Shown here: positions 16,095 to 61,427 of the stretch, one piece after another
Layout of the letters: each line of letters opens with the position of its first letter
Numbering within the stretch: the stretch's first letter is position 1
Assembly (NCBI RefSeq): GCF_024700885.2
Contig: NZ_CP117016.1
Reading direction: 5' to 3' (one strand)
Source of the DNA: Escherichia coli
GTDB taxonomy: Bacteria; Pseudomonadota; Gammaproteobacteria; Enterobacterales; Enterobacteriaceae
DNA: 64,000 nt
The notes under the pieces: model-generated
The model's input: only the letters and a program-made list of their open reading frames with translations
Told to the model about the DNA's origin: nothing
The model's database searches: none
Made by a program: the position numbers and the translations under genes

Positions 16095-16170
16095 GGGTCG
16101 TTAGCTCAGTTGGTAGAGCAGTTGACTTTTAATCAATTGGTCGCAGGTTCGAATCCTGCACGACCCACCA
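16095..16170 (+). tRNA. lysT: tRNA-Lys (anticodon UUU)
   Basis: 76-nt cloverleaf GGGTCGTTAGCTCAGTTGGTAGAGC...ACGACCCACCA with CTTTTAA anticodon loop. Confidence 0.95.
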
Positions 16171-16198
16171 ATCGCTAAGGTGGACGCGGTAGTAAAAC

Positions 16199-16270
16199 GT
16201 GAAGGATAACGTTGCGTCAGCAACGGCCCGAAGGGCGAGACGAAGTCGAGTCATCCTGCACGACCCACCA
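16199..16270 (+). repeat. spacer repeat ending in a copy of the tRNA-Lys 3' terminus
   Basis: About 70 bp GTGAAGGATAACGTTGCGTCAGCAACGGCCCG...TCATCCTGCACGACCCACCA; second copy at 16694-16763. Confidence 0.7.
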
Positions 16271-16305
16271 CTAACCTAGTTAGTTGTAGTATCCAGCGTA
16301 GTATC

Positions 16306-16381
16306 GGGTGATTAGCTCAGCTGGGAGAGCACCTCCCTTACAAGGAGGGGGTCGGCGGTTCGATCCCGTCATCACCCACCA
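16306..16381 (+). tRNA. valT: tRNA-Val (anticodon UAC)
   Basis: 76-nt cloverleaf GGGTGATTAGCTCAGCTGGGAGAGC...CATCACCCACCA. Confidence 0.95.
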
Positions 16382-16383
16382 CC

Positions 16384-16459
16384 GGGTCGTTAGCTCAGTT
16401 GGTAGAGCAGTTGACTTTTAATCAATTGGTCGCAGGTTCGAATCCTGCACGACCCACCA
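16384..16459 (+). tRNA. lysW: tRNA-Lys (anticodon UUU)
   Basis: Identical to lysT. Confidence 0.95.
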
Positions 16460-16510
16460 CTAATTACGGTGGGTTCGGTGGAAGTAGTTTGTAGTATCCA
16501 GCGCAGTATC

Positions 16511-16586
16511 GGGTGATTAGCTCAGCTGGGAGAGCACCTCCCTTACAAGGAGGGGGTCGGCGGTTCGATCCCGTCATCACCCACCA
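16511..16586 (+). tRNA. valZ: tRNA-Val (anticodon UAC)
   Basis: Identical to valT. Confidence 0.95.
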
Positions 16587-16589
16587 CTC

Positions 16590-16665
16590 GGGTCGTTAGC
16601 TCAGTTGGTAGAGCAGTTGACTTTTAATCAATTGGTCGCAGGTTCGAATCCTGCACGACCCACCA
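16590..16665 (+). tRNA. lysY: tRNA-Lys (anticodon UUU)
   Basis: Identical to lysT. Confidence 0.95.
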
Positions 16666-16693
16666 ATTTTAACATCAAACTCAGATGTTAAGC

Positions 16694-16763
16694 GTGAAGG
16701 ATAACGTTGCGTCAGCAACGGCCCGTAGGGCGAGCGAAGCGAGTCATCCTGCACGACCCACCA
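16694..16763 (+). repeat. spacer repeat ending in a copy of the tRNA-Lys 3' terminus (second copy)
   Basis: Near-identical to 16199-16270. Confidence 0.7.
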
Positions 16764-16811
16764 ATTTTAAAGATTGGTTCCGAGTAGAAATCTTTCAGGT
16801 AACACCCGTAT

Positions 16812-16887
16812 GGGTCGTTAGCTCAGTTGGTAGAGCAGTTGACTTTTAATCAATTGGTCGCAGGTTCGAATCCTGCACGACCCACCA
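16812..16887 (+). tRNA. lysZ: tRNA-Lys (anticodon UUU)
   Basis: Identical to lysT. Confidence 0.95.
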
Positions 16888-16920
16888 TCCTGAATGATTA
16901 AAGCAGCATAATCCCGCAAG

Positions 16921-16996
16921 GGGTCGTTAGCTCAGTTGGTAGAGCAGTTGACTTTTAATCAATTGGTCGCAGGTTCGAATCCTGCACGACCCACCA
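16921..16996 (+). tRNA. lysQ: tRNA-Lys (anticodon UUU)
   Basis: Identical to lysT. Confidence 0.95.
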
Positions 16997-45671: not shown

Positions 45672-46264
45672 TGGTTGCCTCCTTTTCGAAGCTGGGCGGC
45701 GATATCTTCGAGAACGCCATCAGAGAATGAGCGGTCAAAATCGCCTTCCGGCGCATTAGCCATAAACTCAGTAGAGGTAAGAATCATCCGGGCAATATCC
45801 GCGGCGTTCTTCGCAGTATCATCAATAAAACCAGCTTCCCAGGCAGCCAGCATTCTGTTCGCCACAAAATAAGCGCCTTCCTTGCGTGCTTCAGTCTTCA
45901 CTTCAGCTAGAAAAGCATCGGTAGCTGGAGTTTCGCTGTGGTGCAGGGCATCGTTGATAATCATTGCAGCAACTCCGGCCTGCCCTGCATCCGTGACCGA
46001 CACATGCTCAAGAGTTACGGCCATTGCGTGTTTCAGCCCGGCGTTCTCTGCCACCAGCGCCGCGAGATTAGTCTCAAGCTCTGCAATACGGCACATAGCA
46101 TCAATATTTGTGTCTTCCAGCCGCTTAATTTCATCCAGTAGAGCCAGTGCCACCGATGGCGTGAACGCCATACGAAACGCCACAAAATTTTGATGCATAG
46201 GTTCTGTTTCTACTGCAACTGCCGCATCTCGCAGTGCCTGATAGTCAATTGTCATTCTCGCCAT
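45668..46264 (-). CDS. coiled-coil phage protein, paralog B
   Basis: 198 aa; N-terminal [14 protein letters not shown]. Confidence 0.5.
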   Translation of the reverse strand: MARMTIDYQALRDAAVAVETEPMHQNFVAFRMAFTPSVALALLDEIKRLEDTNIDAMCRIAELETNLAALVAENAGLKHAMAVTLEHVSVTDAGQAGVAAMIINDALHHSETPATDAFLAEVKTEARKEGAYFVANRMLAAWEAGFIDDTAKNAADIARMILTSTEFMANAPEGDFDRSFSDGVLEDIAAQLRKGGNQ

Positions 46265-46917
46265 CCTTCACAGTTGTAATCACGACAGCCTTCAAAATCA
46301 TATGGGCTGTACTGCCAGGTAATTTTTCCGCAATGCGGACAATTCCAACGCACCTTCCCGCTTCGCGACTTCTTTCTTCTGTTCTGCTTTTTCAACCAGT
46401 CAGGCATGACCAAACCTGCGCCCTGAACCATTGTTCTGCGGTTAAAGTTATTGATATTGAACGTCCGGCGCTTTGCTGAATCAGCAATGGAAAATGGCAA
46501 CCAAACTATTCCTGGTTCGTTTTTGTTGGCGACGCTAAAGATGGTCGCTTTACTGAAGTCATCTGTTGGCAATCCACCGTGTTGAAGCCAGTAAACATCG
46601 TTGCCGTTCCAGCTACCTTTTTTGTAGGCCACATACGCAGTGCAATCTGACTCAATCAGGCTTTCTGTAGGGATGTACTGGCAATCAACGTGCCACACTG
46701 CCATTGCATCCACGCTATCCGCGCAAACAGGCTGATCGATATCTCGCCCACAATTCCAGGCTTTTTGGGCTTCTTCCAGCGTGTAAACATGAGCGCGATC
46801 GATATCAGAACTGTAACCATTGCCGTTATGGCAATGGAATGAAGCGTTATTGCCCACAGTTTCACGCGAGCACATCATGTAAAAACGGTTAGTCACTGGC
46901 TGCCTCCTTTGCGCCAC
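46252..46917 (-). CDS. hypothetical phage protein with C-terminal Cys-rich zinc-ribbon-like motif
   Basis: 221-aa ORF (GTG start; ATG alternatives at 46878/46875); CPHCG...C...C at C-terminus. Confidence 0.5.
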
Positions 46918-58000: not shown

Positions 58001-58185
58001 ACGCCACAATTCAAACGATACCAGAGCTTCTTATTCAGACACGAGGCAATCAGACCGAAGTGGCGAGGATGCTTTCCTGCGCAAGAGGAACAGTGCTCAA
58101 GTACAACCGAGACAGCAAAGGCGAGCGTCACGTAATAGTTAACGGCGTCCTGATGGTCAAACAGGGCAAGAGGGGTAGACCATGA
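57997..58185 (+). CDS. small putative DNA-binding protein (62 aa)
   Basis: Helix-turn-helix-like segment TRGNQTEVARMLSCARGTVLKY; overlapping start/stop with rusA and Q. Confidence 0.45.
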   Translation: MNATIQTIPELLIQTRGNQTEVARMLSCARGTVLKYNRDSKGERHVIVNGVLMVKQGKRGRP

Positions 58186-58805
58186 GACTCGAAAGTGTAG
58201 CTAAATTTCATTCGCCAAAAAGCCCGATGATGAGCGACTCACCACGGGCCACGGCTTCTGACTCTCTTTCCGGTACTGATGTGATGGCTGCTATGGGGAT
58301 GGCGCAATCACAAGCCGGATTCGGAATGGCTGCATTCTGCGGTAAGCATGAACTCAGCCAGAACGACAAACAAAAGGCTATCAACTATCTGATGCAATTT
58401 GCACACAAGGTATCGGGGAAATACCGTGGCGTGGCAAAACTCGAAGGAAATACTAAGGCAAAGGTACTGCAAGTGCTCGCAACATTCGCTTATGCGGATT
58501 ATTGCCGTAGTGCCGCGACGCCGGGCGCAAGATGCAGAGATTGCCACGGTACAGGCCGTGCGGTTGATATAGCAAAAACAGAGCAGTGGGGGAGAGTTGT
58601 CGAGAAAGAGTGCGGAAGATGCAAAGGCGTCGGCTATTCAAGGATGCCAGCAAGCGCAGCATATCGCGCTGTGACGATGCTAATCCCAAACCTTACCCAA
58701 CCCACCTGGTCACGCACCGTTAAGCCGCTGTATGACGCTCTGGTGGTGCAATGCCACAAAGAAGAGTCAATCGCAGATAACATTTTGAATGCGGTCACAC
58801 GTTAG
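58182..58805 (+). CDS. Q: late-gene antiterminator Q (lambda type)
   Basis: 207 aa with zinc-finger CRDCHGTGR...CGRCKGVGY; recognised as lambda Q. Confidence 0.85.
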   Translation: MRLESVAKFHSPKSPMMSDSPRATASDSLSGTDVMAAMGMAQSQAGFGMAAFCGKHELSQNDKQKAINYLMQFAHKVSGKYRGVAKLEGNTKAKVLQVLATFAYADYCRSAATPGARCRDCHGTGRAVDIAKTEQWGRVVEKECGRCKGVGYSRMPASAAYRAVTMLIPNLTQPTWSRTVKPLYDALVVQCHKEESIADNILNAVTR

Positions 58806-59017
58806 CGGCATGATTGCCACGGATGGCAACATCTTTACGGCATGATATTGACTTTTTGAATAAAGTTGGGTAAATTTGACCCAACGATGGGTTAATTCGC
58901 TCGTTGTGGTAGTGAGATGAAAAGAGGCGGCGCTTACTACCGATTCCGCCTAGTTGGTCACTTCGACGTATCGTCTGGAACTCCAACCATCGCAGGCTGA
59001 GAGGTCTGTAAAATGCA

Positions 59018-59076
59018 ATCCCGAAACAGTTCGCAGGTAATAGTTAGATCCTGCATAACGGTTTCGGGATTTTTTA
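59018..59076 (+). terminator. tR'-like terminator downstream of Q
   Basis: Long hairpin ATCCCGAAAC...GTTTCGGGAT followed by TTTTTTATTT. Confidence 0.7.
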
Positions 59077-59079
59077 TTT

Positions 59080-59154
59080 GGGTCAGTCGTATAAAGGTCA
59101 TTACGGAAGGCTGTTAACCTTCTTATCGTGGTTCGAGTCCACGCTGTCCCGCCA
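59080..59154 (+). tRNA. phage-encoded tRNA, anticodon GUU (Asn-type), slightly non-canonical
   Basis: Manual fold: acceptor GGGTCAG/CTGTCCC (one mismatch), D-loop with GG, anticodon arm GAAGG-CTGTTAA-CCTTC, T-arm CGTGG-TTCGAGT-CCACG, discriminator G, CCA. Confidence 0.55.
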
Positions 59155-59159
59155 AATAT

Positions 59160-59235
59160 GCTGGTTTAGCTCCAATGGTAGAGCAGTCGCCTTGTAAACG
59201 AATGGGTAGCGGTTCAAGTCCGTTAACCAGCACCA
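59160..59235 (+). tRNA. phage-encoded tRNA, anticodon UGU (Thr-type), weak anticodon stem
   Basis: Manual fold: acceptor GCTGGTT/AACCAGC perfect, D-arm GCTC-CAATGGTA-GAGC, T-loop TTCAAGT, CCA; anticodon stem has two mismatches. Confidence 0.5.
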
Positions 59236-59477
59236 TAACTGAGCCGTAGCCACTGACTATCCTGAATTCATCAGTGATAGTTACGCTGCGGCCTTCTACA
59301 CATGATATTCGTGAAAGCGGGTGGCAGGAGGTTGCGCTAACAACCTCATGCCGTTTTGCCCGTGCATATCGGTCACGAACAAATCTGATTACTAAACACA
59401 GTAGCCTGGATTTGTTCTATCAGTAATCGACCTTATTCCTAATTAAATAGAGCAAATCCCCTTATTGGGGGTAAGAC

Positions 59478-59801
59478 ATGAAGATGCCAGAAAAACATGA
59501 CCTGTTAGCCGCCATTCTCGCGGCAAAGGAACAAGGCATCGGGGCAATCCTTGCGTTTGCAATGGCGTACCTTCGCGGCAGATATAATGGCGGTGCGTTT
59601 ACAAAAACAGTAATCGACGCAACGATGTGCGCCATTATCGCCTGGTTCATTCGTGACCTTCTCGACTTCGCCGGACTAAGTAGCAACCTCGCTTATATAA
59701 CGAGCGTGTTCATCGGCTATATCGGTACTGACTCGATTGGTTCGCTTATCAAACGCTTCGCTGCTAAAAAAGCCGGAGTAGAAGATGGTGGAAATCAATA
59801 A
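59478..59801 (+). CDS. S: holin S (lambda S107/S105 dual start)
   Basis: [41 protein letters not shown], recognised as lambda S. Confidence 0.95.
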
Positions 59802-60261
59802 TCAACGTAAGGCGTTCCTCGATATGCTGGCGTGGTCAGAGGGGACTGATAACGGACGTCAGAAAACCAGAAATCATGGTTATGACGTCATTGTAGGCGG
59901 AGAGCTATTCACTGATTACTCCGATCACCCTCGCAAACTTGTCACGCTAAACCCCAAACTCAAATCAACAGCCGCCGGACGCTACCAGCTTCTTTCCCGT
60001 TGGTGGGATGCCTATCGTAAGCAGCTTGGCCTGAAAGACTTCTCTCCGAAAAGCCAGGACGCTGTGGCACTGCAACAGATTAAAGAGCGTGGCGCTTTAC
60101 CGATGATTGATCGCGGTGATATCCGTCAGGCAATCGACCGTTGCAGCAATATCTGGGCTTCACTGCCGGGGGCTGGTTATGGTCAGTTCGAGCATAAGGC
60201 TGACAGCCTGATTGCAAAATTCAAAGAAGCTGGCGGAACGGTCAGAGAGATTGAGGTATGA
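59785..60261 (+). CDS. R: endolysin R (lytic transglycosylase)
   Basis: 158-aa protein [34 protein letters not shown], recognised as lambda R. Confidence 0.95.
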
Positions 60262-60725
60262 GCAGAGTAACCGCGATTATCTCCGCTCTGGTTATCTGCA
60301 TCATCGCCTGTCTGTCATGGGCGGTTAATCATTACCGTGATAACGCCATCGCCTACAAAGAACAGCGAGATAAAAAAGTCAGTGAGCTGAAGCAGGCGAC
60401 CGCCACCATTACTGACATGCAGCAGCGCCAGCGTGCTGCTGATGCACTCGATGCTAAATACACGAAGGAGTTAGCTGATGCGAAAGCTGAAAATGATGCT
60501 CTTCGGCGCAAGCTTGATAATGGTGGTCGGGTGTTCGTCAAAGGAAAATGCCCTATGCCATCCTCAGCCGAAACCTCCAGCGCCTCCGGCATGGGCAATG
60601 ATGCCACCGTCGAACTCTCTCCAGTTGCTGGACGAAACGTTCTCGGTATCCGGGACGGAATCATCAGCGACCAAACAGCACTGAGAACGCTTCAGGAATA
60701 CATCAGGACGCAATGCCTTCGATGA
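60258..60725 (+). CDS. Rz: spanin inner-membrane subunit Rz (divergent C-terminal half)
   Basis: N-terminal [16 protein letters not shown]...[17 protein letters not shown] lambda-like; C-terminal part differs. Confidence 0.8.
60478..60684 (+). CDS. Rz1: spanin outer-membrane lipoprotein Rz1, embedded in Rz in +1 frame
   Basis: [21 protein letters not shown] lipobox followed by Pro-rich [11 protein letters not shown]. Confidence 0.65.
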
Positions 60726-60901
60726 TAGCGATAATTTTACTCATCATCCTTCACATCTGGCTCTGTAGACAGGGTGGTGATCACTTCTGGAGTGAATCCA
60801 GATTAAACATCTCATTGCTGATGCTTGATATTGAGCATCTTGCGCGCGGTAAGGGGCTGCGTTGAGATAAGAGCCAGTTCATTACAAATACCAGGATTTA
60901 G

Positions 60902-60924
60902 CCTCGCATTCGCGGGGTTTTTTA
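60902..60924 (+). terminator. rho-independent terminator after lysis cassette
   Basis: Hairpin CCTCGC-ATTC-GCGGGG followed by TTTTTTATT. Confidence 0.7.
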
Positions 60925-60947
60925 TTCCCAACTCCATAGGTAATTTT

Positions 60948-61427
60948 ATGACCCAGCATATTGGCGTAAAACTGATTAACGCCTTTCCGATGACGAGACA
61001 GGCATATAACGATTTTCGTGGCTGGCAGCTTCCTGCCGGAGAAAACGGCGAGGACGAAGGCTATCTGGTTGAATATCTGGATGGCGGAAAACCTAACACC
61101 GATCGCTTTGATGGCTACGTTAGCTGGAGTCCAAAAGAAGTATTCGAAAAGGCTTATCGTCCGGTATCAGGACTAAGTTTCGGCCTTGCCATGGAAGCGT
61201 TAAAACAGGGCAAAAGTTTGCAGCGGGCAGGATGGAATGGGAAAGACCAGTTTGTTTATCTCGTGAAAGGGGAAAAATTAGCGTCTGCGTTGGGTTATGG
61301 CTTTGGCGAATATGTTGGCGAGCCAACTTTCAATGACACGCTTGTATTGAAAAACTCACAGAACCGCCTTGCTACATGGGTTCCATCCATTGGCGACCTG
61401 ATGGCTGAAGACTGGCAAATCATTTAA
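60948..61427 (+). CDS. DUF2829-like (possible Tad2-like) protein, 159 aa
   Basis: Start at MTQHIGVKL after the terminator; motif FGLAMEALKQGKSLQRAGWNGKDQFVYL and C-terminal DLMAEDWQI fit my recollection of the DUF2829 signature. Confidence 0.5.
   Translation: MTQHIGVKLINAFPMTRQAYNDFRGWQLPAGENGEDEGYLVEYLDGGKPNTDRFDGYVSWSPKEVFEKAYRPVSGLSFGLAMEALKQGKSLQRAGWNGKDQFVYLVKGEKLASALGYGFGEYVGEPTFNDTLVLKNSQNRLATWVPSIGDLMAEDWQII

Follow-up and report, generated by a model that had tools for sequence, protein, structure and literature searches.

The spanin pair of phage lambda (reference, NC_001416; Rz, 45966-46427; Rz1, 46186-46368) is among the closest known systems to the genes considered here. Lambda Rz was described by Cahill et al. 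2017 as consisting of a transmembrane domain (TMD; residues 1-24), a first coiled coil (CC1; residues 27-87), a linker, a second coiled coil (CC2; residues 121-150), and a short C-terminal domain (PMC5295617). In lambda, the complex is still formed by most of the missense mutants that are defective in lysis, and truncation of Rz1 to residue 55 is tolerated without loss of function (PMC5295617). A salt-bridge pair is formed by Rz1 R59 and Rz E150 (PMC6139136), and a single intermolecular disulfide was found in published work to be enough in lambda. Spanins were grouped into families by Kongari et al. 2018 when 40% or more of the periplasmic sequence could be aligned at an identity of 40% or higher (PMC6139136). 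In their tables, the 'HK620' o-spanin family has 14 members, including HK620, ST104, SE1, mEp460, SPN9CC, vB_SosS_Oslo, and Gifsy-1, and the matching i-spanins fall into the 83-member 'Lambda' i-spanin family, which is also paired with the 'Lambda' and 'HK97' o-spanin families (PMC6139136).

We analysed a 64,000-nucleotide stretch of Escherichia coli DNA (hereafter, the window), in which Rz and Rz1 are the last genes of the late lysis cassette of a P22-like/lambdoid prophage (Q, a pR'-like promoter, two tRNA genes, S, R, and Rz/Rz1, in this order; Table 1). The S and R genes were 98.5% and 96.4% identical to those of lambda (NC_001416) at the nucleotide level. We consider, with a probability of roughly 90%, that Rz and Rz1 form a functional embedded two-component spanin that belongs to a common HK620-type allele and that was assembled as a patchwork by recombination among lambdoid phages.

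Table 1. Features of the lysis cassette, of the segments of Rz/Rz1, and of the DNA that follows them (positions in the window)
Feature	Position	Strand	Evidence or remark
Q	58182-58805		
pR'-like promoter	58848-58876		TTGACT-17-TAAATT
tRNA-Asn(GTT) and tRNA-Thr(TGT) genes	59080-59235		between Q/pR' and the holin gene
Holin S	59478-59801	+	PF05106 match; lambda-like
Endolysin R	59785-60261	+	lambda-like; RefSeq annotation of the identical stretch
Rz, i-spanin, 155 aa	60258-60725	+	ORF; PF03245 and phrog_13 matches
Rz1, o-spanin, 68 aa, nested in Rz	60478-60684	+	ORF; PF06085 and phrog_3198 matches
Segment A, Rz aa 1-29 (TMD and juxtamembrane motif NHYRDNAI)	60258-60344	+	near-identical to lambda and Sf101
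Segment B, Rz aa 30-62 (moderately diverged patch in CC1, type B1)	60345-60443	+	lambda identity; typing
Conserved 47-nt island, Rz nt 199-245, within aa 67-82	60456-60502	+	no diagnostic differences between lambda-type and HK620-type
HK620-type allele-specific core, Rz aa 84-144 and Rz1 codons 10-68	~60504-60691	+	identity profiles
Segment E, last 11 Rz codons (10 residues and stop), 3' of the Rz1 stop	60692-60725	+	Sf101/mEp213 identity
50-aa ORF, overlapping the last 13 nt of Rz	60713-60865	+	hydrophobic N-terminus; phrog_11822 (E = 3.9e-38), function unknown
Terminator-like hairpin AGCCTCGCATTCGCGGGGTT, then TTTTATT	60900-60929	+	3' of the 50-aa ORF
159-aa ORF directly 3' of the lysis cassette	60948-61427	+	PF11195 'Thoeris anti-defense 2-like' (E = 6.4e-22, residues 77-159)

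Rz1 lies wholly within Rz in the +1 frame (offset, 220 nt) and carries a lipobox and a proline-rich segment, as the preliminary description had stated. Rz matched the Pfam profile PF03245 ('Bacteriophage Rz lysis protein'; E = 2.6e-29, residues 29-153, 102.4 bits with a cut-off of 25.4) and phrog_13 (E = 3.6e-74), and Rz1 matched PF06085 ('Lipoprotein Rz1 precursor'; E = 3.8e-21, residues 19-61, that is, the whole profile, 75.0 bits with a cut-off of 27.9) and phrog_3198 (E = 9.1e-27). The secondary structure of the Rz monomer was predicted with AlphaFold2 from a shallow alignment of 14 sequences, and the model (mean pLDDT, 74.5; pTM, 0.30) was used for secondary structure only; it consists of a helix (residues 3-87), a low-confidence coil (88-121, with low confidence at 96-120), and a second helix (122-153). 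The most hydrophobic 19-residue stretch of Rz is residues 4-22 (mean Kyte-Doolittle value, 2.5), and this hydrophobicity together with the modelled helix predicts an N-terminal transmembrane helix. The linker at residues 88-121 is predicted to be disordered, and the predicted domain plan of Rz is the same as that of lambda Rz. Rz1 has a signal peptide with the lipobox VVGC, in which Cys19 is next to SS (Ser at +2, no Asp); Cys19 is the predicted lipid-modified residue, and Rz1 is a predicted outer-membrane lipoprotein. Rz1 also has a second cysteine (Cys27) and the proline-rich motif KPPAPPAW. Cys98 and Cys153 of Rz were invariant in the 14-sequence alignment, and the counterparts of lambda Rz C99 and C152 and of Rz1 C29 are retained in the pair. 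Thus, the sequence and model features by which an embedded two-component spanin of the lambda kind was recognized are present: the predicted N-terminal transmembrane stretch, the predicted helix-linker-helix order, the +1 nesting, the lipoprotein signal, the Pfam scores above the cut-offs, and the position in the cassette.

The lysis role, complex formation, and fusion mechanism would be those of the lambda spanin (PMC6139136, PMC5295617), by analogy. Rz would be anchored in the inner membrane by its N-terminal helix, and Rz1 would reach the outer membrane after export and lipid modification at Cys19. Binding between the periplasmic ends of the two proteins would give a complex that spans the periplasm. 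Once holin S and endolysin R have acted, this complex would destroy the outer membrane, probably by fusion with the inner membrane.

The pair shares with lambda the embedded +1 architecture, the position of the Rz1 start codon, the domain plan, the cysteines, and the Pfam and PHROG families. The alignment with lambda that was proposed in the preliminary description was performed, and full-length identity to lambda Rz was not found. There, the first 85 or so residues of Rz had been described as matching lambda; this is correct in outline (84%, 70 of the 83 residues at positions 1-83), but the match is not uniform. Residues 1-29 and 63-83 are almost or completely identical (28/29, 97%, with 95.4% nucleotide identity, and 21/21, 100%, respectively), whereas residues 30-62 have diverged (21/33, 64%, with 78.8% nucleotide identity). 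The rest of Rz indeed differs, with 24 identical residues in 73 aligned columns from residue 84 to the end (33%; 57% at the nucleotide level), and the core within it was 57% identical in nucleotides and 29-33% in amino acids. Mature Rz1 was 33% identical to that of lambda (17/51). Rz is 2 residues longer than in lambda, and Rz1, the tail of which has a different sequence as described, is 8 residues longer (68 vs. 60 residues); the longer tail is unlikely to matter, by analogy, since lambda Rz1 tolerates the truncation to residue 55. The alignment scores of the C-terminal part of Rz and of mature Rz1 were far above those of shuffled controls (z, about 9 and 7, respectively), and the Pfam Rz and Rz1 profiles were matched at full length; the divergent back part is thus a diverged homolog of the lambda sequence and not an unrelated replacement. 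In addition, the 33% identity of mature Rz1 lies below the 40% over the periplasmic sequence that defines the 'Lambda' o-spanin family, which agrees with the separate family in the table of Kongari et al. 2018 (PMC6139136).

The pair is not new; it is a common and already catalogued Rz/Rz1 allele of the HK620/ST104/mEp460/SPN9CC type. The Rz/Rz1 DNA was 93.8% identical to that of HK620, and Rz1 differs from ST104 Rz1 by one residue (K5R), which places it in the 'HK620' o-spanin family; ST104 has Rz and Rz1 of the same lengths as those in the window (155 and 68 residues). The 468-nt gene matched 67 phage records at a coverage of at least 80% (whole-gene nucleotide identity: Ayreon, 98.3%; SPN9CC, 96.3%; mEp460, 95.9%), and the divergent 219-nt back part with the core matched 81 phage records. 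These core matches include phage JEP4 (100% identical), Salmonella P22-like phages (ST104 and SE1), Klebsiella phages (81-87%), and, as partial matches with lower identity, Gifsy-1 and Erwinia PEp14. The HK620 record notes a similarity to Rz of Salmonella phage PS119 (related, PS119 gene 15). Compared with the HK620-type relatives, only point differences were found (for example, Rz F93, M100, and S138), and the type of the front segment varies within the family: the B type of ST104 is a different one, and lambda B is found in some relatives. A copy at a gene coverage of at least 80% is present in 1,782 (about a third) of 5,426 complete E. coli genomes; these copies are of the HK620-type allele, since the match of a lambda-type gene can extend no further than the first 53% or so of the gene. 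Rz1 is unannotated both in the PGAP/RefSeq record of the identical stretch (E. coli 266917_2) and in the HK620 record, and it is annotated in the ST104 record (orf44). The missing annotation is a gap and not evidence of absence, and the gap looks systematic, extending over about a third of the complete E. coli genomes. The Rz1 call for this allele is based on the present analysis and on the ST104 record.

For the analysis of selection, 76 distinct sequences of the family, all equal in length, were compared. In the 5' part that encodes Rz only, the variable sites were concentrated at codon position 3 (52, compared with 36 at position 1 and 33 at position 2), and the same was found in the Rz-only 3' part (11, compared with 3 and 3). 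In the overlap, 20 variable sites were at Rz position 3, 24 at position 1, which is the wobble position of Rz1, and 8 at position 2. For 57 changes in the core, the synonymous fraction was 44% in the Rz frame, 40% in the Rz1 frame, and 12% in the unused frame, with an expectation of 23-27% from all possible changes; four of the observed changes would create stops in the unused frame. The synonymous excess in both frames and the concentration at the wobble positions show purifying selection on both Rz and Rz1. The variant L042 (Rz, 158 aa; Rz1, 71 aa) has a 9-bp duplication by which the proline stretch of Rz1 gains PPA and the Rz linker gains GAS, and both frames remain intact. Another natural variant has Rz1 Cys27 replaced (…SVKYQPQ…). 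Note that a 103-aa ORF also lies on the opposite strand of the Rz/Rz1 overlap (60353-60664, minus strand); this ORF is presumably a side effect of the double coding constraint rather than a gene.

If the +1 frame were open by chance, or if the pair were the remnant of a decaying prophage, the lack of an Rz1 call by PGAP in the identical RefSeq stretch would be explained. This is extremely unlikely given the E value of the PF06085 match, the retention of the Rz1 ORF, its start, and its lipobox in 226 of the 227 related loci typed, the enrichment of synonymous changes in the Rz1 frame over the control frame, the duplication that is in frame for both proteins, and the presence of the same pair in the free-living phages HK620, mEp460, Ayreon, and SPN9CC.

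For the analysis of the mosaic structure, 235 IMG/VR loci were gathered by searching with whole Rz, with the front half of the lambda gene, and with the back half of the window gene, and the segments were typed by motif anchoring in 116 distinct sequences. Relatives often begin with MNR..., use a GTG start, or carry other TMDs. An apparent class of 102-aa Rz was rejected as an artefact of the ORF finder, which required an ATG and an MSR/MSK N-terminus, and does not represent truncation. Core type and Rz1 type were perfectly linked in the 116 sequences, and the front patch B, for which three types were distinguished, assorted separately from the core: lambda B was found with the lambda core (36 sequences) and with the window core (16), window-type B with the window core (about 60), and the third B type with the window core (2). 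No sequence with the B1 front and the lambda core was present among the 116, but the sampling was biased by the queries and this absence carries little weight. Four TMD types precede the same core, and several differing crossover points were seen inside segment B.

The left junction of the core could be placed closely. At Rz codon 83/84 (at about 60505), the identity to lambda falls sharply, from 92-100% to 57% of the nucleotides within a few bases. In the recombinants with the lambda front and the HK620-type core, the switch always occurs between Rz nt 198 and 246; the stretch in between, AAATACACGAAGGAGTTAGCTGATGCGAAAGCTGAAAATGATGCTCT, is the island of Table 1, in which the lambda-type and HK620-type consensus sequences have no diagnostic differences. 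It holds the Shine-Dalgarno sequence of Rz1 (AAGGAG), the ATG of Rz1, and the first 8 Rz1 codons, and it encodes Rz residues Y68-A73, which were invariant in the 14-sequence alignment. The conservation of the island is likely due to this double duty, that is, to the invariant Rz residues and the Rz1 translation start. Judging from these switches, the island is the left recombination junction of the core, where crossovers can occur. CC1 extends four residues beyond position 83/84; the core thus comprises the linker and most of CC2, together with the last residues of CC1, and, on the side of Rz1, the rest of the signal peptide and the entire mature lipoprotein.

The right junction was found by comparison with Sf101 at 60692, 8 nt 3' of the Rz1 stop, where about 99% identity resumes and runs through the last 11 Rz codons, the 50-aa ORF, and the hairpin. 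Sf101 and mEp213 are of the HK97 type (the 'HK97' o-spanin family of Kongari et al. 2018, PMC6139136) and have an Rz of 145 residues; the annotated Rz1 of Sf101 has 61 residues. In Sf101, S, R, and the first 39 Rz residues, together with the last 11 Rz codons and some 210 nt on their 3' side, are 97-100% identical to the window, whereas the middle 320 nt or so (about 60374-60691) differ, and the identity is only 24% in the Rz core and 30% in mature Rz1. At the tail, matches of 36 nt at 94-97% were found with Sf101, mEp213, HF4s, and E212. A variant with the lambda core and the window-type tail (...QEYIRTQC) exists, and segment E assorts independently of the core. Compared with lambda, there is no right boundary within the gene: in most loci, the window core continues into downstream DNA of the window type, and DNA from the bor side comes after the lambda core.

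The C-terminal difference might also have arisen without exchange, by gradual divergence in place from a lambda-like ancestor that was accelerated by the constraints of overlapping frames; the homology of the core to that of lambda in both frames and the retained cysteines and PPxPPAW motif would fit such a history. We regard it as very improbable. The identity profile changes in steps, falling at 60504 and returning, against Sf101, at 60692; the same core stands behind lambda-type, B1, and B2 fronts and behind the four TMD types, and lambda cores occur with the tail of the window allele. In addition, the within-family diversity in the overlap is low and not high, and smooth intermediates between lambda and HK620 were absent from the 116 distinct sequences. 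The patchwork is rather explained by homologous recombination among lambdoid phages, which brought together a lambda-like TMD segment and island, the diverged patch B, a core that represents one of three or more old alleles (lambda, HK620, and HK97), and last 11 codons with downstream DNA that are common to HK97-type phages. The core moves as one block since Rz1 is nested in it, and crossovers can occur only in the conserved flanks.

In the preliminary description, Rz and Rz1 were said to co-vary, and the locus was proposed as a case of coupled spanin mosaicism. The mosaicism is borne out by the abrupt identity step at codon 83/84 and by the natural recombinants. The coupling, in contrast, does not follow from the co-variation, which is automatic from nesting: Rz1 is wholly inside Rz, and any exchange of DNA swaps both; furthermore, the allele is a common one. 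Residue co-variation within the family, for example of Rz S138R and Rz1 S62L, was considered as a test and rejected, since these two changes are only a few nucleotides apart and their linkage is inseparable from co-evolution.

A stronger form of coupling would be that the junctions were placed by selection for partner compatibility, with the core as a specificity module and the island as a maintained recombination linker. The position of the left junction in the signal peptide of Rz1 and of the right junction just past its stop is suggestive but weak in this respect. No chimeric core was found in the 116 distinct sequences, and the three core alleles share only 24-39% identity with one another (24-37% in Rz and 30-39% in mature Rz1). 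In pairwise alignments, the lambda pair Rz1 R59/Rz E150 is replaced on both sides here, which is also a weak indication. However, the nesting and the 57% nucleotide identity of the cores would by themselves give the same pattern. The perfect linkage of core and Rz1 cannot be read as partner selection, because of the nesting and because the cores are too diverged for an internal crossover; for the same reason, the lack of lambda/HK620 hybrids within residues 84-144 among the 116 sequences is not evidence of selection. Moreover, the last 11 Rz codons, including the position equivalent to E150, reassort freely, and the tolerance of lambda to missense mutations and to Rz1 truncation argues against a narrow lock-and-key interface. 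Selected placement of the junctions is thus possible, but we think it unlikely. We are more doubtful still about the full proposal that the lambda, HK620, and HK97 cores are mutually incompatible specificity modules with selected junctions, in which the linker and CC2 move with their own Rz1; if it were true, these alleles would be a natural source of matching and non-matching partners with which to map the Rz-Rz1 interface, which is still unsolved.

Several observations were made in the DNA around the pair. The prophage of E. coli 266917_2 is 99.7% identical to the window from 59308 on and has no match across 58905-59308; its gap between Q and S has no annotated feature, and the tRNA insert is absent. 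This prophage adjoins torS, and its integrase region is only 78% identical to that of the window. In phage L, tRNA genes, including that for an Asn tRNA with the GUU anticodon, are located just 5' of the lysis genes (PMC8022706). On the 3' side of Rz, lambda has bor, whereas the window has the 50-aa ORF and the Tad2-like gene. The 50-aa ORF is 99% identical to Sf101 gp62 despite the different Rz/Rz1 core of Sf101, and it accompanies the window-type core in most IMG/VR loci; the high identity to Sf101 stops shortly beyond the hairpin. The 159-aa ORF, which occupies the place of lambda bor and is a DUF2829 protein in RefSeq, is a candidate anti-defence gene in the tail of the late operon, as judged from its profile match. 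In the window, seven tRNA-Lys/Val genes are clustered at 16095-16996, and the integrase end of the prophage begins near 42.4 kb. On the K-12 map, this spacing would presumably fit integration near the lambda attB region.

In the literature that was searched, neither an experiment on this allele nor a paper mapping the intragenic junctions or the dual-frame selection was found; the original description of the HK620 genome (Clark et al. 2001) was outside the search and may have priority. The map of the junctions and the signal of selection on both frames add a little to a known allele, which is common and already grouped in the spanin literature, and the identity of the pair has little significance beyond bookkeeping. 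As for annotation, the standard procedure overlooks the nested Rz1, which leaves an unannotated lysis gene in about a third of E. coli genomes. The natural recombinants define four swappable blocks, namely, the TMD, patch B, the core with Rz1, and the 11-residue tail, and these blocks would give a cheap design for chimeric-spanin tests of the site at which Rz and Rz1 recognize each other.
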